Assembly: GCA_017463765.1 (NCBI GenBank) | Contig: JAFTON010000002.1 | Coordinates: 206 to 64,205 of the forward strand | Length of the DNA: 64,000 nucleotides | Source of the DNA: Clostridia bacterium | GTDB taxonomy: Bacteria; Bacillota; Clostridia; Oscillospirales; CAG-272 | Direction: 5' to 3' | Shown: in pieces, positions 2,282 through 61,405 of the stretch | How positions within the stretch are numbered: position 1 is the stretch's first letter | Layout: every line of letters begins with the position of its first letter | Notes under the pieces: model-generated | Seen by the model: the letters and a program-made list of their open reading frames with translations, nothing else | What the model was told of the DNA's origin: nothing | Databases searched by the model: none | Program-made: the position numbers and the translations under genes

Positions 2282-4201
2282 TTAATTTTCTTTCGAATAT
2301 GACCAGACTACAGGTAGAAATACAGTTCCGTTTTCATCTATTCCACTGGCGTTCCATGTTTTGATCCAGCCCTCCGGCTTGGTATCGGTTTCACAGTAAA
2401 GGGTCAGTCTGTTGCATTCCATAAACACCGATTTTCCGATAACCGAAACACTTTCGGGGATAACAAGCCTCGAAAGCTTCGAACAGTATGCAAAGGCAAA
2501 AGCACCGAATTCGGTTACAGAGTCTCCGAAATTCACCTCGTTAAGATTTTTACAATGCATAAACGTGCCCTCGCTGATTTTCGTTACTCCATCGGGCAAG
2601 GTAATACTTTCAAGAGAAATACAATTCTCGAACGCACGGTTACCGATTTCGGTCACGCCCTCGGGAATAGTAATGCTTTTAAGCCCCTCACAACGCTCAA
2701 ACGCGCCGTCACCGATCCTTACGATCCCATCGGGAAGAGTAATGCTATCAAGAGAGGTACACAGATAAAAGGTCTCTCCACCAATCTGGGTAATTCCATC
2801 GGGAAGCACTACCTCCTTAAGATCACTCCGTCGACGGAATGCACCACTGGAGATCACCCCTGTATCCTCATGAACGGTTATAGACTCAATATAATCAGGT
2901 ATAGGTTTACAAAACAGATGATAAGGATTTTCCTCATTTCCAAGATAAAGACCACCGTTCCATTCGGTAAAAGCCTCTCTTGGCAGATCACCGAACACCG
3001 AGTGTGAGATTGAAGAAAGAGAGCTCGGAACCGTAACCTTCTTAAGCGCATTACATGCATAGAATGCCGAGCCACTTATACTCTCCACGTTCTCAGGAAT
3101 ATGGATATAGGCAAGCCGATGACAGTTATCAAACGCCATTATTCCTATAGATTTAACCCCCGAGCCTATATGCACGGTAATAAGATTCCTACAACCTCTA
3201 AACATTTCATCTGATATTGCCGTAAGACTGTAGGGCAGAGTCAATTCGATCAGGTTGTCACAGCTTGAAAAGCACATATATCCCACCGACGTAATACCCT
3301 CGGGCAGTGTGATACCGGTAAGACTGTCGCATCCGTAAAACGCCTGATCACCGAGCCGTGTGACGCTTTTTGGAATATTTACCGATTTAAGAGCGCCACA
3401 GGAACGGAAGAGCATATTGCTTATTTCAGTAATGCCGTCGGGAAGTCTTACCTCGGTAAGATTATCGCATTCACAGAATGCCCACTCACCAATGCTCTCT
3501 ACCCCGTCGGGAATATATATGGTTTCAAGCGATTCACATCCCTGAAAGGCGTTGTAGCCTATTTTCTTAAGCCCCTTCGGCAGATCAATTTCAGCAAGTC
3601 TTACGCATTCCCGAAAGGCGTAAATGCCGATTTCACTGACGGAATCCGGAATATCAACGGTGGTCAGCATTTTGCAACCGGCAACCATAGACTCGGGAAT
3701 AAGGGTAAGATTCGACCTGATAATTAATCTCTGAAGCGCGTATGCATTCACGACAGCCGCCACTTCAATCTCGGTAACACTCTCGGGAATAAGCAGACTT
3801 CGTATCTGTACGCCTTCAAATGCGCCATTGCATATTTTCCTTACCGGGAGTCCATCGAACTCCGATGCAATAACTACGTGAAGTTCATCACCATTGTATC
3901 TCGTCACCTCGGCATATTGCCCATCCTTTGCCTTACGGTAAACAACCCCCTCGGTAGAAGGAACGGAATCACATTTCTCGCATGCACCGGAATTCACATG
4001 AAACACGCTCGGTATATTTTCGCGCTCAACCTTGCCACAGTTACACTTTCTTTCGTTTATTCCATCTCTGTCACAGGTCGGCTCGCGCTTAGTATACCAA
4101 TCTCCAAATATATGGTCGTGCTCAGTACATGAAGAAAGAAGAAGGGTAACGATAAACACTACGAAACACAAAACAAAACTTAAAGCTCTTTTCATTCTCA
4201 T
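2282..4201 (-). CDS. BspA-type leucine-rich-repeat surface lipoprotein
   Basis: Lipobox LLLSSC. Many tandem ~23-aa LRR units (IP..V..IG..AF..C..L). N-terminal His/Cys mini-module. Start ATG is ambiguous (4207, 4201 or 4195). Confidence 0.85.
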   Translation of the reverse strand: MRMKRALSFVLCFVVFIVTLLLSSCTEHDHIFGDWYTKREPTCDRDGINERKCNCGKVERENIPSVFHVNSGACEKCDSVPSTEGVVYRKAKDGQYAEVTRYNGDELHVVIASEFDGLPVRKICNGAFEGVQIRSLLIPESVTEIEVAAVVNAYALQRLIIRSNLTLIPESMVAGCKMLTTVDIPDSVSEIGIYAFRECVRLAEIDLPKGLKKIGYNAFQGCESLETIYIPDGVESIGEWAFCECDNLTEVRLPDGITEISNMLFRSCGALKSVNIPKSVTRLGDQAFYGCDSLTGITLPEGITSVGYMCFSSCDNLIELTLPYSLTAISDEMFRGCRNLITVHIGSGVKSIGIMAFDNCHRLAYIHIPENVESISGSAFYACNALKKVTVPSSLSSISHSVFGDLPREAFTEWNGGLYLGNEENPYHLFCKPIPDYIESITVHEDTGVISSGAFRRRSDLKEVVLPDGITQIGGETFYLCTSLDSITLPDGIVRIGDGAFERCEGLKSITIPEGVTEIGNRAFENCISLESITLPDGVTKISEGTFMHCKNLNEVNFGDSVTEFGAFAFAYCSKLSRLVIPESVSVIGKSVFMECNRLTLYCETDTKPEGWIKTWNASGIDENGTVFLPVVWSYSKEN

Positions 4202-7333: not shown

Positions 7334-7714
7334 TCAAATATCCACTTTCCAGAGGCCGTGGAGATTACAGTAAGCGTAAACCTCAAGAGGCTTCTCATCG
7401 GCGAGTGCAAAAACAACCTTTGGTTCTTCGCCTGGGTTAAGGTGCTTTCTCTGAACGCCACGATCGGTCTTAAGCTCGATCCAGAGGATAGAGTGCTCCT
7501 CTACCATAGGATGCTCTACCGATCCCACAACAACCTTCACGGTATTTCCCTCTACGGTTGCAACGGGAATGTGCTTCTCACGGCTTGCCTCAACGGTGCC
7601 TGCCTCAATGGGAGTCATCTTCTGACCGCAGCATACTACGGGAACTCCGGAATCATCGATCTTCTCAATTACGTTGCCACACTTTTCACAGATATAAAAT
7701 TTGGTTTTAGACAT
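7334..7714 (-). CDS. dfx: desulfoferrodoxin (superoxide reductase)
   Basis: 126 aa. N-terminal desulforedoxin-like CEKCGN...VVCCGQ, and a C-terminal SOR domain ending in CNLHGLW. Confidence 0.9.
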   Translation of the reverse strand: MSKTKFYICEKCGNVIEKIDDSGVPVVCCGQKMTPIEAGTVEASREKHIPVATVEGNTVKVVVGSVEHPMVEEHSILWIELKTDRGVQRKHLNPGEEPKVVFALADEKPLEVYAYCNLHGLWKVDI

Positions 7715-7784
7715 TATTTTATTCCTCCATAGGTTTGTATTTTTGTTTTGTGATTATATTATAGCATATTTTTTCGCATTTGTG

Positions 7785-7799
7785 TGTGACTTTGTCACA
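7785..7799. promoter_or_regulatory. 15-bp palindrome TGTGAC-TTT-GTCACA, Crp/Fnr-type site in the dfx / MBL-crp divergent region
   Basis: Perfect palindrome. On the minus strand it lies exactly 21 nt upstream of TATAAT (7758-7763) in front of dfx, and there is no -35 hexamer. Confidence 0.6.
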
Positions 7800-7830
7800 T
7801 TTTTTTATTTTTTTTATTATTTTTATTTTA

Positions 7831-7859
7831 TTGACATAAATGGAAAATAGTGCTATAAT
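7831..7859 (+). promoter_or_regulatory. consensus sigma-A promoter of the MBL-hydrolase/crp operon
   Basis: TTGACA-17 nt-TATAAT, preceded by a long T-rich tract (7800-7830). Confidence 0.65.
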
Positions 7860-7886
7860 TTTTATATTAATATATGGAGTGAAAAA

Positions 7887-8648
7887 ATGAGAATAATCTC
7901 ACTTGCAGAAAACACCTCGCGAAGAGATGACATCAGGTCCGAACACGGTCTGTCGCTGTATATTGAGGCGTGTGGAAAGAAAATCCTTTTCGACATGGGA
8001 CAGAGTGATATTTTCTATGATAACGCCCTTGCTCTTGGCGTTGATATTTCCTCGGTAGACATTGCCATAATTTCCCACGGTCACTACGACCACGGTGGTG
8101 GACTTAAAAGGTTTCTTGAGATAAACGGGAGTGCACCGATATATATAAGAAGGACTGCCACCCTTCCCTACTACAACGGTGAAAGATACATCGGACTTGA
8201 TCCAACCCTTACCGATTGTGACAGGCTGATCTTTACCGATGGCGAGCTTTCTGTATGCGAGGGAATACGTCTTGTCTCCATAGACAGTGCGCCGGATGAC
8301 GTTGGCGAAATGAAATTGCGTGTTGGTGACAGATTCATTCCCGACAGCTTTAACCACGAGCAGTATCTGCTTATAGAAGAGGGTGAAAGGCGCACGCTTA
8401 TCAGTGGCTGCTCCCACAAGGGAATTATTGCCATTGCAGAGCATTTTAAACCGAATGTGCTTATCGGTGGATTTCACTTTATGAATATGGAGACGGGAGA
8501 TGAGCTTAAAGAACGCGCCGAAAGACTTGACGCCATAGATTGCGACTACTACACCTGTCACTGCACAGGAGTATTACAGTATGAGTATCTTACCAAATAT
8601 ATAAAAAGGATAAAATACCTGTCGGCAGGCGACAGTATAGAGATTTAG
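7887..8648 (+). CDS. MBL-fold metallo-hydrolase
   Basis: ISHGHYDHGGG metal-binding motif. 253 aa. Confidence 0.8.
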   Translation: MRIISLAENTSRRDDIRSEHGLSLYIEACGKKILFDMGQSDIFYDNALALGVDISSVDIAIISHGHYDHGGGLKRFLEINGSAPIYIRRTATLPYYNGERYIGLDPTLTDCDRLIFTDGELSVCEGIRLVSIDSAPDDVGEMKLRVGDRFIPDSFNHEQYLLIEEGERRTLISGCSHKGIIAIAEHFKPNVLIGGFHFMNMETGDELKERAERLDAIDCDYYTCHCTGVLQYEYLTKYIKRIKYLSAGDSIEI

Positions 8649-8660
8649 GAATCGAAAAAA

Positions 8661-9338
8661 ATGAACGAAACAGAGCTTACTGAATTATTCGAAAAAGCAT
8701 TTCCCTTCTGGGAAGGACTCACCGATTGGGACAGGAACACCTTTATTCACTCATCCCAAAAGGTAAAATTTTCAAAGGGCGCAAACGTACACGACGGTGG
8801 CGAGTGCACCGGTGTTATTCTTATTAAATCGGGCGTGCTGCGCCTTTACCTTTTATCCGACGAAGGCAAGGAGGTCACACTCTACAGGCTTTTCCCCGGA
8901 GAGATGTGCATTTTCTCAGCGTCCTGCGTTCTTGACAGCATAACCTTCGACGTTTTTATTGACGCCGAGGAGGACAGCCAATGCGTCGTTGTGGGTGGCT
9001 GCGCTTATGAGGGTGTGTGGCAGAAATCCGATGCAGTTAAGATTTTCACCTATGAAACTGCGCTCAGCCGTTTTTCCGACGTAATGTGGGTAATGCAGCA
9101 GATACTCTTTATGAGCATGGACAAGCGTCTTGCCATCTTCTTGCTTGACGAAACCTCAAAAAACGGCAGCGATACAGTAAAGCTCACCCATGAGCAGATA
9201 GCAAAATATATGGGCTCTGCCCGTGAGGTCGTAACCCGAATGCTGAAATACTTTGTCTCCGAGGGTCTTATCTCGGCTTCAAGGAGCGAGGGAATAAAGA
9301 TAATTGACAAGAAAAGATTAAGAAGCCTGGCAATCTAA
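8661..9338 (+). CDS. Crp/Fnr-family transcriptional regulator
   Basis: N-terminal cNMP-binding-like beta-roll. C-terminal HTH with SAREVVTRMLK (RE..R, as in the CRP recognition helix). No N-terminal FNR-type Cys cluster. Confidence 0.85.
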   Translation: MNETELTELFEKAFPFWEGLTDWDRNTFIHSSQKVKFSKGANVHDGGECTGVILIKSGVLRLYLLSDEGKEVTLYRLFPGEMCIFSASCVLDSITFDVFIDAEEDSQCVVVGGCAYEGVWQKSDAVKIFTYETALSRFSDVMWVMQQILFMSMDKRLAIFLLDETSKNGSDTVKLTHEQIAKYMGSAREVVTRMLKYFVSEGLISASRSEGIKIIDKKRLRSLAI

Positions 9339-9358
9339 TAAACACGTAATTCAAAAAA

Positions 9359-9381
9359 CCTCCCGAACGGGAGGTTTTTTT
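9359..9381 (+). terminator. intrinsic terminator after the Crp/Fnr gene
   Basis: CCTCCC-GAAC-GGGAGG followed by TTTTTTT, with an A-run upstream. Confidence 0.8.
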
Positions 9382-9411: not shown

Positions 9412-9560
9412 TCATACGTCGAGTGGGAGAAAGCGAGGTTTTTAACCAAAAATAGCAAGTTTCAGTGCGAAGATAGTTTTGAGGTAAAAAGCTTGATTGC
9501 GACCCGAAGGCGTATTCTCATACGTCGAGTGGGAGAAAGCGAGGTTTTTAACCAAAAATA
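9412..9560. repeat. intergenic repeat family, locus A (43-bp exact direct repeat, period 106 bp; one half copy plus one full copy)
   Basis: TCATACGTCGAGTGGGAGAAAGCGAGGTTTTTAACCAAAAATA at 9412-9454 and 9518-9560. The full copy carries the TTGCGACCCGAAGG core from 9497. Confidence 0.85.
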
Positions 9561-9869
9561 TCAAGCACCAACGAGATCGAGGATTTGATCTTTGCTCCTC
9601 GCTCCACTTACCTTTTTCAGAATCTTGCCCTCTTTCATAACCACAAGCGTGGGAATGCTGAGGACTCCGAACTCACGGGCAAGGTCCGGGTTATCGTTTA
9701 CGTTTATCTTTCCAACCAGGAGATCTTCTCTCTCTGCTGCGATCTCATCCACAAGAGGAAGCACCATACGGCACGGACCACACCAATCAGCATAGAAATC
9801 GAGAAGCGAAAGTCCCTTGTTGTTTCTTACCTGATTAAAATTTTCGTTATTAAGTCTAATAGCTGACAT
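9561..9869 (-). CDS. trxA: thioredoxin
   Basis: 102 aa with the WCGPC active site. Confidence 0.9.
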   Translation of the reverse strand: MSAIRLNNENFNQVRNNKGLSLLDFYADWCGPCRMVLPLVDEIAAEREDLLVGKINVNDNPDLAREFGVLSIPTLVVMKEGKILKKVSGARSKDQILDLVGA

Positions 9870-47745: not shown

Positions 47746-47821
47746 GGAAGGTTAGCTCAGTTGGGAGAGCATCTGCCTTACAAGCAGAGGGTCACAGGTT
47801 CGAGCCCTGTACTTTCCACCA
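47746..47821 (+). tRNA. tRNA-Val (anticodon TAC)
   Basis: Hand-folded cloverleaf: acceptor GGAAGGT/ACTTTCC, anticodon loop CTTACAA, T-loop TTCGAGC, encoded CCA. Confidence 0.9.
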
Positions 47822-47849
47822 AAGCTTAGAGCCTTAGGCTCTAAGCTTT
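47821..47849 (+). other. perfect 13-bp stem / 3-nt loop hairpin between tRNA-Val and tRNA-Asp
   Basis: AAAGCTTAGAGCC-TTA-GGCTCTAAGCTTT. It begins at the last A of the tRNA-Val CCA. Confidence 0.8.
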
Positions 47850-47863
47850 CAATTTTACTACTC

Positions 47864-47940
47864 GGCTTGGTAGCTCAGTTGGTTAGAGCGCTAGCCTGTC
47901 ACGCTAGAGGTCGTGGGTTCGAGCCCCATCCGAGTCGCCA
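47864..47940 (+). tRNA. tRNA-Asp (anticodon GTC)
   Basis: Acceptor GGCTTGG/CCGAGTC, anticodon loop CTGTCAC, T-arm GTGGG-TTCGAGC-CCCAT, encoded CCA. Confidence 0.9.
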
Positions 47941-48046
47941 CATTTTTATATCAGTCATTACCGGCTCGAACAGAGGAGGTAGTGAATGACAGTCCGGTGG
48001 ACTGTCAGAGCCGACGGCGACCAAGACGCGCAGTTCGCGTCGCGAC

Positions 48047-48067
48047 CGAGCCCCATCCGAGTCGCCA
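48047..48067 (+). repeat. 21-nt exact duplicate of the tRNA-Asp 3' end (T-loop to CCA)
   Basis: CGAGCCCCATCCGAGTCGCCA occurs at 47920-47940 (inside the tRNA) and again at 48047-48067. Confidence 0.85.
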
Positions 48068-48085
48068 TTTTAAAAATCAATACCT

Positions 48086-48161
48086 GCGGATTTAGCTCAT
48101 TTGGTAGAGCGCCACCTTGCCAAGGTGGAGGTGGCGGGTTCGAGCCCCGTAATCCGCTCCA
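48086..48161 (+). tRNA. tRNA-Gly (anticodon GCC)
   Basis: Acceptor GCGGATT/AATCCGC, anticodon loop TTGCCAA, T-arm GCGGG-TTCGAGC-CCCGT, encoded CCA. Confidence 0.9.
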
Positions 48162-48165
48162 AAAT

Positions 48166-48200
48166 AAAAACCGTACCCAAAGAGGTACGGTTTTTGTTTT
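48166..48200 (+). terminator. intrinsic terminator after tRNA-Gly
   Basis: AAAAACCGTACC-CAAAGA-GGTACGGTTTTTGTTTT. Confidence 0.8.
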
Positions 48201-48276
48201 GGACGGGAATGGGGCTTTCGTCGCACCAAAGCGACGATTAGCCCTTAAGTTTGCCTCGCAAACTTAACGTGTTGCT

Positions 48277-48343
48277 TCGCACCAAAGCGAAGCAACGCAG
48301 CGTAATACCGCTCTCAAGGACACTCCTTGTGGGTGTCCTTTTG
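48277..48343 (+). repeat. copy 1 of duplicated module (36-nt exact repeat plus AAGGACAC...GTGTCCTTTT hairpin)
   Basis: TCGCACCAAAGCGAAGCAACGCAGCGTAATACCGCT at 48277-48312 is identical to 48559-48594. It is followed by the hairpin AAGGACAC-loop-GTGTCCTTTTG. Confidence 0.8.
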
Positions 48344-48558
48344 TTTTGGACGGATAGGGGCGTCCACCCACCAAGAACCCTTTGGGTTCTGCGGATTCTC
48401 TCCCGTCTGCTTTTGTGTCGTCGCACTTCGCCTCGATTCGCTCGGCTCGTCCGACTCGCAACGCGAGACATCGCTTCACGAAAAATAGTTCTCAACTATT
48501 TTTCCCTCGCTCTCCCCGTAATCCGAGTGCCTCACCACAATGCTTGTTGGAGTTTTCA

Positions 48559-48665
48559 TCGCACCAAAGCGAAGCAACGCAGCGTAATACCGCTACAAAA
48601 AGTAATAGAAAGACTATTAATTTTATATAAATTATAGAAGGACACCCACGTAGGTGTCCTTTTTG
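48559..48665 (+). repeat. copy 2 of duplicated module, with an AT-rich 43-nt insertion before the hairpin
   Basis: 36-nt exact repeat at 48559-48594. Hairpin AAGGACACCC-ACGTA-GGTGTCCTTTTT at about 48638-48665. Confidence 0.8.
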
Positions 48666-54883: not shown

Positions 54884-55010
54884 GTTTTTCTCCCTTCAAA
54901 AAATGTTATTGCTATTACTATATATAGTATAAATCATTTATTTTTCGTTGTCAAGTGGATACAAAAAGACAGGCAAAGCGCTCGGTCTTTTCACAGTTAT
55001 TTTTTCATAT

Positions 55011-55240
55011 GCTCGCTTTTGGGATAGGGAAAATTGAGATAAAAAGGCCGCTTGCGACCCGAAGCTGTAGATAACTACTGCGAGTGGGAGCGAACGACTA
55101 TTTTAGCTATTTTTCACATTTCAAGAGCTCGCTTTTGGGATAGGGAAAATTTGGATAAAAAGGCCGCTTGCGACCCGAAGCTGTAGAAAACTACTGCGAG
55201 TGGGAGCAAACGGTCTTTTTAGCCAATTTTAACATTCCAA
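55011..55240. repeat. intergenic repeat family, locus B (two full tandem copies, period 116 bp)
   Basis: Units start at 55011 and 55127 (GCTCGCTTTTGGGATAGGGAAAATT...). Each contains TTGCGACCCGAAGCTGTAG-loop-CTACTGCGAGTGGGAGC. Confidence 0.85.
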
Positions 55241-55243
55241 AAG

Positions 55244-56956
55244 TTAGTCGATGGTCATATCCATCTTTCTCCTCAGAATCTTACGGAGTGTATTCTTGGG
55301 GAACTCCTCCTCACGAACCTTTACAAGACCTATCTTCTTATAGGGAACTGCTGTCTTGTTGTATTCGTTTACGAACTTCTGGAAGTATGCTTTTGCATCG
55401 GTGATGCCCTTTTCCTCAAGGAATGCCTTGTCGGGATAGATCTCTGCAACAATGGTATTGAAGGTAATACCACGACGGGACTTACCCTCGTATACTACGA
55501 TATCAACAAGGCCGGGCGTAGCACTGAGTGCGTCCTCAATCTCCTCGGGATATACGTTCTTACCGTTAGAAAGAATGATGATATTCTTGAATCTACCTGT
55601 AATATAGAGGATTCTGTCACCCTCTTTGGTTATTTCCATTTTACCTGCATCGCCGGTACGGAAGTAGCCGTCCTCAGTAAAGGCTTCGGCATTTGCCTCG
55701 TCGTTCTTATAGTAGCCAAGCATTACGTTAGGACCCTTAACCTGAATCTCACCCTCGCCGTTTTCGTCAGCGTCTGCGATACGGCAGTCAACGATGGGAA
55801 GAACGGGACCAACGCTCTTGGGAACGATGTAGTTGTTATGGTTTACCGCAAGAATAGGCGCACACTCGGTGATACCGTAGCCGTTAAGAACCTTAACACC
55901 CAGACCGTCGAAGAGCTCTGCCATCTCCTGATTAAGAGGAGCGCCACCCGAAATAATCATATTAAGCTCACCACCGAAGGCAGCGAGAACCATTTTCTTA
56001 AAGAAACCGTCGAAGGGCTAAAGACCGATCTTGTGACAGCTCTTGTTAAAGGAAATAAGACCCTTCATAAGACCTGCAACAAACTTACCCTTTTCGTCAA
56101 TACCCTTGAGAATTCTTCTGTAGAAGGTCTCAACGTAGAGAGGAACGGCAACAAGGTGACCCGGCTTATGCTCCTGAAGCTCCTTAAGAATATACTTAAC
56201 GCCTGAAGAAATATACACGTCACAGCCGATGCAGTTCTGTCCGTAGATAGATACAGAAGAACCGTAGGTGTGGTGGGGAGGAAGAACGTTCATACACTTA
56301 ACCGAGAAATCGATAAAGGGGATAACGTCTGCAAGGTCGGACATAAAGTTGCGCTGGGAGAGCATAACACCCTTGCCCTGTCCGGTTGTACCCGAGGTAA
56401 ACACAAGCTCTGCAAGCGCATCGGGATCAATAGGCGCATCGTAGTAAAGCGAGGGGTTTTCCTTAAACTTCACTGCACCTGCCTCACGCCATGCAAGAAG
56501 GCTGTCCTCACCGTCGCCGTTAAGGAACAGGGGGGCAGGCATACCAAGCTCGGTAGTAATATACTCACCTTTTTCTCTTATGTCAAGGTCACACATAAGA
56601 AAATCACACTCACCACTTCTCACGGTCTCGAGCAGATCCTCCTTTGACCAGTCACGGTCGAGGGGAACCCAGACAGAACCAACAGCCATCGTTGCGTAGT
56701 AGCTCTGAATAAGGTTGTAGGTATGCTTACCGATAACGCAGATCTTCTTACCCTGAAGACCTCTTGCAACAATCTCGGTAGCGAGAGCGCGTACGTGGTC
56801 GCGCATCTGGTCGTAGGTAACGACCACGGCCTCTTTGTCATGAGGCTTGATTCTGTAACGGTAAGCAGGCTTACCTGCATAAATATTGCCAATATCCTCA
56901 ACCATCTCTCGGATATTGAGATATTCCTTTTTCTCTCTTAATGCTTTTACTTTCAT
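55244..56956 (-). pseudogene. AMP-dependent acyl-CoA synthetase/ligase (long-chain fatty acid CoA ligase-like) interrupted by one in-frame TAG
   Basis: ORFs 56018..56956 and 55244..55993 are in the same frame and separated only by the TAG at 56018-56020. Motifs FTSGTTGQGKG (N-terminal part) and NGYGITE (C-terminal part). Confidence 0.75.
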
Positions 56957-60635: not shown

Positions 60636-60731
60636 TTATCTATATTAAATCCTTATATTTATATCACATATATTTTGCCAAGTGATATAAAAAATAAAAG
60701 TAGTTTGATTATTTGTATTAATTTTTTTCTT

Positions 60732-60883
60732 TCGAGTGGGAGCAAACGGAGATTTTAACCATACCAAGCCCGACTCTGTATTCTCGGGTGGTTGGTTTGA
60801 GGAAAAATTTTCGCTTGCGACCCGAAGGCGTAGTTTCCTACGTCGAGTGGGAGCAAACGGAGATTTTAACCATACCAAGCCCC
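60732..60883. repeat. intergenic repeat family, locus C (40-bp exact direct repeat, period 111 bp; half copy plus full copy)
   Basis: TCGAGTGGGAGCAAACGGAGATTTTAACCATACCAAGCCC at 60732-60771 and 60843-60882. The full copy carries the core TTGCGACCCGAAGGCGTAGTTTCCTACG. Confidence 0.85.
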
Positions 60884-60923
60884 GAGAAAAACAAAAGGTG
60901 CCGTAGTCACGGCACCCTATGTC

Positions 60924-61238
60924 TTATTTAAACACATCGGAATAGTTGTTAATGTTGCTGTTCTGCCAATCTTCGAGAGAATAGGACGCAGCATAATCGG
61001 GCTGAATGATGAATACAGCCAAAACTGCAACTGCAAAAACAATCGCCGCAATAAGAGTCCACTTATAAAGCGCTCTGTCGGTATTAGAGGATTTGTCCTT
61101 GCCGTAGAAGGTCTCCGAACCACCGGAAATAGTACTGGAAAGGCCGTCCTCGTTACTTTTCTGAAGAACAACTGCAACAACGATAAACGCAGCCGAAACG
61201 AGAAGCAGTACAAGAAGTACGTATTCGATTACTAACAT
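60924..61238 (-). CDS. secG: preprotein translocase subunit SecG
   Basis: MLVIEYVLLVLLLVSAAFIVVAVVLQKSNEDGLSS, plus a second TM. AGGAAG lies 8 nt before the ATG at 61238. Confidence 0.85.
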   Translation of the reverse strand: MLVIEYVLLVLLLVSAAFIVVAVVLQKSNEDGLSSTISGGSETFYGKDKSSNTDRALYKWTLIAAIVFAVAVLAVFIIQPDYAASYSLEDWQNSNINNYSDVFK

Positions 61239-61405
61239 TATTTCGCTTCCTTTCATATTATTTCTCGCATAGCGAGTATGATTCACAGAGGTATTCTACC
61301 ATAAAAGAAAGAAAATTGCAATAGTTTTTTACTATTTTTTTATTTTTTTCATATTTTCTTTTAAAAAAGCCATACTAACCATAGTTTCAGAAAGGTTTTT
61401 TTATT

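Follow-up and report, generated by a model that had tools for sequence, protein, structure and literature searches.

Introduction

Interspersed palindromic repeats are well studied in Proteobacteria. Repetitive extragenic palindromic (REP) sequences lie downstream of open reading frames (ORFs), can overlap stop codons, and contain G-T pairs (Di Nocera et al. 2013, PMC3733652), and the related REPINs are hairpins of about 100 nt that occur in tandem clusters including their flanks, decay into singlets, and persist vertically over long periods (PMC3116915; 10.1101/2021.07.10.451892). We found no such family described for rumen or gut Clostridia. Here we describe an intergenic hairpin repeat in a 64,000-nt stretch of a Clostridia bacterium genome (assembly GCA_017463765.1, contig JAFTON010000002.1, positions 206 to 64,205 of the forward strand; hereafter the window), where it occurs on the + strand at three loci, called A, B, and C. 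The main new finding is the strict position of the element at stop codons: it lies opposite to a convergent gene, and its 3' end falls at the stop codon of that gene.

In many respects the element resembles REPs and REPINs. It is a short, palindromic extragenic repeat without coding capacity that lies mostly downstream of ORFs, sometimes overlaps their stops, and is predicted to fold into hairpins of about 100 nt with G-T pairs as single-stranded DNA (ssDNA) or RNA. There are many dispersed copies, tandem clusters with their flanks, decaying half-elements, and persistence at orthologous sites. The architecture, however, is different. Whereas a REPIN consists of two inverted REPs of 20-40 nt, this element has a single central module with arms that are neither palindromic themselves nor conserved between loci. 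The module is an imperfect palindrome of about 45 nt rather than a 20-40-nt palindrome with a terminal GTAG or CGTC, and its GTAG/CTAC sits at the top of the stem beside the loop and varies (GTAG, GTAC, GTAT). Unlike that of REPs and REPINs, its orientation is fixed relative to the neighbouring gene, and its host belongs to the Bacillota, whereas the REPIN/RAYT literature that we found makes no mention of Firmicutes.

Other described systems share single features with the element. ERIC/IRU, Correia/NEMIS, pneumococcal BOX, RUP, and SPRITE are intergenic elements of 100-150 bp that resemble miniature inverted-repeat transposable elements (MITEs) and form long RNA hairpins. They are similar in having modular or tandem sub-units (BOX) and in being often co-transcribed with their neighbours, but they carry conserved terminal inverted repeats, several with TA duplications, whereas here the outermost 7-14 bp of the stem are locus-specific and covarying, no duplication was seen by eye, and selection for pairing appears to act on the gene's antisense strand. 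The attC sites of integrons, imperfect hairpins of 57-141 nt, follow immediately after a stop codon; they are variable in sequence and conserved in structure, and their functional strand is complementary to the coding strand and folds as ssDNA. They keep R''/R' boxes (RYYYAAC/GTTRRRY) at the base and vary at the tip, whereas in the present element the tip is invariant, the unit ends show no R boxes in either orientation (window sequences and consensus), and the flanking genes are housekeeping genes and not cassettes. Class C group II introns reportedly insert after intrinsic terminators, and on the element strand our arrays often follow a terminator hairpin and T-tract, but the element has neither an intron RNA domain nor a reverse transcriptase. 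Finally, the RNA repeats of type III toxin-antitoxin systems stand directly upstream of a toxin endoribonuclease gene, whereas the neighbours of this element are unrelated housekeeping genes.

Results

The element is positioned at the stop codons of convergent genes

In 26 of the 32 arrays with their 3' flank present, a convergent gene on the opposite strand has a stop codon that starts 22-39 nt after the GGGAG of the element. This stop (TAA in 21 arrays, TGA in 3, and TAG in 2) coincides with the hairpin base or falls within it by up to about 12 nt. The flanking genes, which we identified by reading their translations, were housekeeping genes: pgk in four species, hprK in three, ileS in two, as well as pfkA, purL, dut, trpB, trx, and others. 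On the 5' side, a strict terminator-like site was found at 7 of 28 arrays compared to 2.1% of control windows, and a few more could be recognized by eye. Read in the direction of the gene, the usual order is thus gene, stop codon, reverse complement of the element, and terminator. Because the element sits between stop and terminator, the mRNA of the neighbouring gene should carry its reverse complement.

We considered two rules that might govern this placement and rejected both. The base of the hairpin does not track the stop codon (r = 0.06), and the length of the arms is fixed at about 33-38 nt. Nor does orientation follow the replication strand: GC skew on the element strand was negative at 25 loci and positive at 11, and since agreement is found at just 25 of 36 loci, we prefer a rule based on gene orientation. 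By the same measure, it is the template of the leading strand that folds in the window. At pgk and trx the 3' arm extends into the coding sequence; the 5' arm, which is intergenic, matches the 3' arm there, and the two change together between species, in what is a small sample.

Gain, decay, and conservation at orthologous sites

The spacer between trx and crp provides a comparison of filled and empty sites (loci outside the window are given L numbers). The element is present in this spacer in the window, in L117, and in L118, whose thioredoxins are 90% and 87% identical to that of the window, while the spacer is empty in L119 (83%; 41 nt) and L121 (78%; 30 nt), each of which holds one bidirectional terminator. 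This terminator, found beside array A in the window, is kept in L118 and is the sole intergenic feature at the empty sites, and no copy of the element was found in 60 kb of L119-L121. The distribution of filled and empty sites therefore indicates that the element was gained in one lineage.

Once present, the unit changes slowly. Between the window and L118, identity of the unit at trx was 0.98 compared to 0.53 at third codon positions of trx itself, and five other orthologue pairs gave 0.83-0.96 for the unit and 0.56-0.73 for third codon positions. The two most distant pairs, both at pgk, gave 0.72 vs. 0.55 and 0.68 vs. 0.69. We then classified the changes in the stem over 13 orthologue comparisons, not all of which are independent: 43 were compensatory replacements of one Watson-Crick pair by another, 31 were exchanges between Watson-Crick and G.U pairs, 7 were exchanges between Watson-Crick and A.C oppositions, and 17 led to a mismatch. 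This pattern leads us to conclude that selection in situ preserves the hairpin of the element strand. On these comparisons of sequence, the stop-proximal unit is held by purifying selection on element-strand pairing only.

The other units of an array behave differently. Units within an array share locus-specific arms, and arrays therefore appear to grow by local duplication. The truncated distal unit of locus A has decayed in L118. At no fewer than four independent loci (A and C in the window, L045, and L058), the breakpoint of truncated units falls at the 3' strand of the apical stem or inside it, a position that fits stalled copying as well as a break or deletion at the hairpin tip. A separate kind of change was seen at L117 (10301-10407), where, compared to 9463-9569 of the window, the type of apical stem has been switched (GCTGTAG/CTACTGC vs. 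GGCGTAT/ATACGTC) by about five coordinated changes between otherwise orthologous arms; this could be due to conversion from another copy or to rapid coordinated change.

Strand preference and anatomy of the hairpin

To compare the two strands, we used the duplex of the outer arms alone, with no loop, as these arms are independent of the pattern by which copies were found. The element strand gave the more stable duplex in 36 of 42 copies, with a mean difference of 5.6 kcal/mol. The RNAalifold consensus was -21.3 kcal/mol for the element strand and -10.2 kcal/mol for the other, and DNA energy parameters pointed to the same strand. The first-pass annotation of this sequence had named the + strand as the folding strand on account of its G.U pairs, and all three measures bear this out. 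Non-canonical oppositions on the element strand are mainly purine-purine, and RNA of the minus strand also folds (-20 to -43 kcal/mol for the units). In base composition, the + strand of the window has C>G and A>=T; such richness in C and A would favour A.C oppositions, and the excess of G.T is thus probably not a product of mutational bias. We infer that the strand asymmetry reflects selection.

The hairpin comprises the whole unit, 107 nt and up to about 125 nt, which folds end to end as one imperfect hairpin with arms of 33-38 nt that covary between copies; an imperfect hairpin had been noted before, but its assigned core of about 50 nt was too short. From the base inward, a locus-specific outer stem is followed by a conserved ATTTTGAG / CCAAAAT segment, a variable inner stem, and a helix TTGC/GCAA. 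Further toward the tip come an internal loop GA/A, a G.T-closed helix CCCG/TGGG, an internal loop AA/GAG, and a 7-bp apical stem with its loop. The invariant part is thus a module with two purine-rich internal loops, 5' TTGC-GA-CCCG-AA ... GAG-TGGG-A-GCAA 3', although the invariance of its 21 pattern bases is partly a consequence of finding copies by pattern. Two types of apical stem occur, GGCGTAG/CTACGTC and, with a T.T mismatch, GCTGTAG/CTACTGC; either closes a loop of 4-6 nt that is free in sequence.

Predicted folding energies in the window were strongest for unit C (-54.6 kcal/mol, z = -7.9) and the stop-proximal unit of locus B, B2 (-46.1 kcal/mol, z = -5.1), followed by unit A (-28 kcal/mol, z = -3.2); the distal unit B1 folds more weakly (-26 kcal/mol, z = -0.6). 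Manual comparison of the two internal loops with K-turn, loop E/sarcin-ricin, and UAA/GAN motifs gave no match. One locus deserves separate mention: at L051 (1076-1182) the element exactly fills the gap between two convergent genes, with no other sequence between them, and at the stem base one TAA stop is paired with the other (TTAATCG...CGATTAA).

Copies in the window

The window holds four full units and two truncated ones (Table 1). At locus B, a repeat finder resolved 55003-55240 into two head-to-tail units, 55003-55118 and 55119-55234, with a period of 116 and 88% identity. The right-flank motif CGAGTGGGAG occurs exactly six times in the 64 kb, always on the + strand (9420, 9526, 55081, 55197, 60733, and 60844), and when up to one mismatch was allowed, 8 matches were found compared to 2.04 expected, a number that none of 100 shuffled sequences reached. 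The left-flank motif TTGCGACCCGAAG is present in all four full copies (55051, 55167, 9497, and 60815). The two right-flank motifs outside the full units are part of 5'-truncated units (9412-9459 and 60725-60772), which stand immediately upstream of full units A and C. A covariance model built from 38 copies recovered exactly the four full units with 87-105 bits, and its next-best match in the window, at 24 bits, was the reverse strand of a true copy. The tandem 116-bp pair, the right flank shared by six copies and the left flank shared by the four full ones, and the details of stem and loop (the two apical stem types, the T.T mismatch, and the free loops) had all been described correctly in the first-pass annotation.

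Table 1. Hairpin units and adjoining features in the window.
Feature	Position	Strand	Details
Locus A, 5'-truncated unit (3' half only, start in apical loop)	9412..9462	+	98% identity to 9518-9565
Locus A, full unit	9463..9569	+	core 9497-9540; 87.2 bits
Bidirectional intrinsic terminator between crp-family gene (8661..9338, +) and array A	9354..9381	.	sequence and terminator scan
Locus B, unit 1 (tandem pair)	55003..55118	+	covariance-model match 55018-55124, core 55051-55095, 91.1 bits
Locus B, unit 2 (stop-proximal)	55119..55240	+	core 55167-55211, hairpin base to 55242; 105.4 bits
TAA stop of convergent AMP-binding (acyl-CoA synthetase-like) gene 55244..55993	55244..55246	-	4 nt beyond unit B2
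Weak terminator-like A-tract/hairpin/T-tract just 5' of array B	54963..54994	.	read from sequence
Locus C, 5'-truncated unit (first base = start of CGAGTGGGAG)	60725..60772	+	sequence and repeat finder
Locus C, full unit	60781..60887	+	core 60815-60858; 99.1 bits
Intrinsic terminator of secG (60924..61286, -)	60895..60918	-	between secG and element

The surroundings of the three loci differ in detail. At locus A, the 3' arm of the unit overlaps the TGA stop of the thioredoxin gene (TCA at 9561-9563) and its last codons. The terminator-like site 5' of array B, which was not called in strict terminator scans, has the array on one side and the promoter of the next gene (54954-54926, minus strand) on the other. 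Locus C is an exception to the usual order, as the terminator of secG separates the unit from that gene. The AMP-binding gene at locus B is split by an in-frame TAG (56018-56020, minus strand) into ORFs 56018..56956 and 55244..55993. In L069 and L045 the orthologous gene is one uninterrupted ORF (571-575 aa), and L069 encodes Lys at the position of the TAG. The TAG is a nonsense mutation, a mark of a pseudogene, or a sequencing error.

Distribution of the family

An exact-pattern scan with one genome per species returned 70 loci, about 37 of them matches with the hairpin. The carriers are about 30 metagenome-assembled genomes (MAGs) assigned to Clostridia/Eubacteriales/Ruminococcus from sheep, goat, yak, deer, and other gut samples, plus one Kiritimatiellae MAG. 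About 30 high-G+C matches in the genome scan (Actinomycetota and others), together with most matches in a scan of metagenomes, were set aside as chance because they lack the hairpin and lie in coding-like sequence. A scan of viral contigs gave four matches with gap lengths of 14 and 26 nt compared to 16-20 in true copies, and BLASTN of the units against plasmid and phage collections gave none.

The covariance model (R1) was made from the alignment A2 of 38 copies, with a structure written by hand from the fold of unit B2. Applied to the fetched loci, it added copies that the exact pattern had missed and exposed head-to-tail arrays of 2-5 units (4 in L034 and in L054, 3 in L030, and 5 in L064 by reading), in which the cores of internal units are often variant or degenerate. 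In copies found by the model alone, C-GAAG ... C-GA(G/T) beside the apical stem was the most persistent part. In an alignment of 54 copies, 86.6% of cells were paired compared to 37-48% when the partner was slid by 1-3 columns, the covariation score was 0.47 compared to at most 0.14 in these slid controls, and 32 of 41 pairs showed changes on both sides.

These results extend the earlier view of the element, which had proposed a dispersed non-coding family with further copies in relatives, compensatory changes in its stem, and no match to a known RNA or REP/MITE family; the copies and arrays in other MAGs, the covariance model, the 54-copy alignment, and the orthologue comparisons agree with it on each point. 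New relative to that view are the full extent of the hairpin, its placement at convergent stops, and the reverse complement expected in the adjacent mRNA. At the gathering score, Rfam 15 found only three tRNAs and a purine riboswitch in the whole window, and at E<=10 it found four chance matches (11.7-17.6 bits) in 54900-55300. The riboswitch is an aptamer of RF00167 at 7-104 on the + strand (50.7 bits; gathering score 37). The three tRNA genes (47746-48158) are followed by a non-coding stretch of about 500 bp (48160-48660) with G+C-rich palindromes, in which a 41-nt sequence, TTGCTTCGCACCAAAGCGAAGCAACGCAGCGTAATACCGCT, is repeated at 48272-48312 and 48554-48594 with 95% identity; the hairpin model has a weak match at 48141-48217 (21.7 bits). 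Literature searches by sequence and by topic returned no description of such an element. The family is one of interspersed hairpin repeats in herbivore-gut Clostridia, undescribed so far.

Partner genes and the Kiritimatiellae repeat

We looked for genes that travel with the element. All-against-all clustering of 225 ORFs from 40 loci gave no recurrent linked family beyond orthologous neighbours. Outside the Clostridia, the 37-nt core of the element also forms part of a multicopy repeat of at least 500 nt, whose copies are near-identical, at L081 (8100-8498) and also at L062, L066, L070, L022, L024, and L067, all from the Kiritimatiellae genome MAG46 and its source metagenome JAEIGA01. This highly structured repeat (fold z = -8.5) has two long hairpins, the second of which contains the core, and a tail of about 110 nt ending in ...AACCGCTTAC, and it is always found at contig ends, upstream of co-oriented genes. 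Rfam 15 returned nothing relevant at these loci, and no group II intron. The near-identical copies indicate recent multiplication and transfer of the module between phyla, with contamination of the MAG as the alternative, and the repeat may be a large structured mobile RNA or DNA element. In L062, a ZMP/ZTP riboswitch (RF01750, 43 bits) lies at 3280-3376 on the minus strand.

About 600 nt upstream of the copy in L081, at 7691-7897, is a truncated N-terminal fragment of an IS200-like Y1 protein (MRRCRINLPNRCYHLISRVAHR...) with 22-nt inverted repeats. It has 28 homologous clusters, all of them ORFs of 37-72 aa, which suggests that the fragment is a MITE-like derivative of an IS200-family element. 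The contigs read did not carry the hairpin. In L113 (3211-3705), directly downstream of a short Y1-like ORF, we also observed a 164-aa ORF with a weak RVT_1 match; it is not beside a hairpin.

Discussion

The reading that we favour, with a confidence that falls somewhat short of even, is that of a REP/REPIN-like, non-autonomous hairpin element that has spread to gene 3' ends and whose gene-proximal copy is retained under selection. The family has spread to many unrelated housekeeping genes, where it occupies the 3' end on the strand opposite to the gene, with its own 3' end at the stop. It amplifies locally in head-to-tail fashion, and distal copies decay, most often losing their 5' half as far as the hairpin tip. 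In the favoured reading, its working form would be a folded single strand of + polarity, which a putative trans-acting protein may recognize through the invariant loop module; this protein could be a mobilising enzyme (for example, a RAYT-like Y1/HUH transposase acting on ssDNA) or a host factor. After the spread, the copy beside the gene end would be retained because its structure matters there.

Several observations weigh against such a REP/REPIN-like element. Its conserved part is one module at the hairpin tip and not two inverted REPs at the ends, and GTAG is inside the stem and not terminal. Orientation follows the neighbouring gene and not the replication strand, which the ssDNA model derived from IS200/IS605 does not predict. 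The arms of copies within one genome are just 60-70% alike or thereabouts, and there is therefore no sign of recent movement in Clostridia. Neither a junction motif nor a target-site duplication was found beside the 26 stops or at the filled and empty trx sites (the duplications were searched for by eye). A motif scan for Y1/HUH transposases gave none in the 64-kb window or in about 110 fetched loci, and we rejected the Y1-like fragment of L081 as a mobilising partner: with inverted repeats of its own and occurrences elsewhere without the hairpin, it is a separate small element. Finally, a genuine structured RNA would account just as well for the strong selection in situ.

The chief rival is accordingly a structured RNA of + polarity, bound by protein at the invariant loops, which would either insulate against convergent transcription or serve as a cis-antisense RNA with full complementarity to the 3' untranslated region (UTR) of the gene, as in the 3'-overlapping antitoxin RNAs of type I systems. 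Such RNA would arise by read-through of the bidirectional terminator or by antisense transcription, and the hairpin would stop, process, or stabilise it. This explanation best accounts for the strand-specific selection in situ: pairing seems to be maintained on the + strand alone, the G.U pairs and the purine-rich unpaired positions resemble those of functional RNAs, orientation depends on the gene and not on replication, conservation is limited to the stop-proximal unit, no protein gene is linked, and at L051 the element is the sole sequence between two convergent genes. Its difficulty is the source of the RNA. We found no sigma-70-like + strand promoter at any of the three window loci and nothing conserved upstream in orthologues, and in at least a quarter of arrays a terminator lies just upstream on the + strand, so that little + strand RNA should arrive. 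The U-tract after the hairpin is not conserved, and the empty sites, the arrays, and the core shared across phyla point to mobile DNA instead. On balance, we regard a structured RNA as possible, but short of probable.

We hold in similarly limited regard a reading in which the element is a host-selected hairpin tag on the antisense strand at the stops of housekeeping genes. A putative protein would read the two-loop module, and the tag would either act on converging transcription or serve a form of mobilisation that targets the gap between stop and terminator. Neither such a gene-end device nor mobilisation into the stop-terminator gap is described for REP, MITE, or any RNA family.

We consider it unlikely that the element works in minus polarity as a 3' UTR element of the mRNA, protecting it from 3' exonucleases and perhaps stalling terminating ribosomes, an effect that E. 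coli REPs within 15 nt of a stop reportedly have. The gene order makes the case for it, as at many loci the element lies between stop and terminator, where the mRNA must carry its reverse complement; the stop codon is at or within the base of the hairpin, RNA of the minus strand retains the folding energies given above, and the flanking genes are well-known housekeeping genes. The pairing, however, is kept on the other strand. Selection on an mRNA hairpin predicts the opposite of the orthologue pattern, in which exchanges with G.U outnumber those with A.C by 31 to 7, and of the strand comparison, in which the minus strand is the weaker one both in 36 of 42 copies and in the alifold consensus.

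A retroelement resembling a short interspersed element (SINE) seems very improbable to us. Here a reverse transcriptase would read the + strand RNA by way of the tip module and place copies behind stops, with incomplete copying giving rise to 5' truncation. Structural selection on the + strand at the level of the family would agree with this, as would the 5'-truncated distal units with their recurrent breakpoint in the apical stem. The same breakpoints are also expected from cleavage or deletion at the hairpin tip, however, and the locus-specific arms of array units indicate that arrays arise by local duplication. No reverse transcriptase gene was found near any copy, the weak RVT_1 match in L113 not being beside a hairpin, and + strand transcription is without evidence. 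To an unusually long and duplicated intrinsic (bidirectional) terminator we give almost no credence: the window copies do have an A-tract, hairpin, and T-tract, a minus-strand terminator-like site is called inside units B1 and B2, and the location at gene 3' ends is suitable, but the T-run that accompanies the G+C-rich stem of an intrinsic terminator is missing from most family members, loci A and C and many others have canonical terminators next to the element, and an invariant 24-nt module and a core shared across phyla are foreign to terminators.

Whichever reading holds, the covariance model built here can annotate these repeats, many copies of which lie at contig ends; repeats of this kind break short-read assemblies. 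The family joins REP/REPIN-like spread and arrays with a fixed stop-codon position and orientation at core metabolic genes. Conservation at orthologous sites is well above the level of synonymous sites, and pairing appears to be selected on the strand that is absent from the neighbouring mRNA. If the folded strand is RNA, gut Clostridia would have a regulatory or insulating RNA that is both widespread and unannotated; a folded strand of ssDNA would point to an unrecognised mobilising enzyme in the Bacillota.

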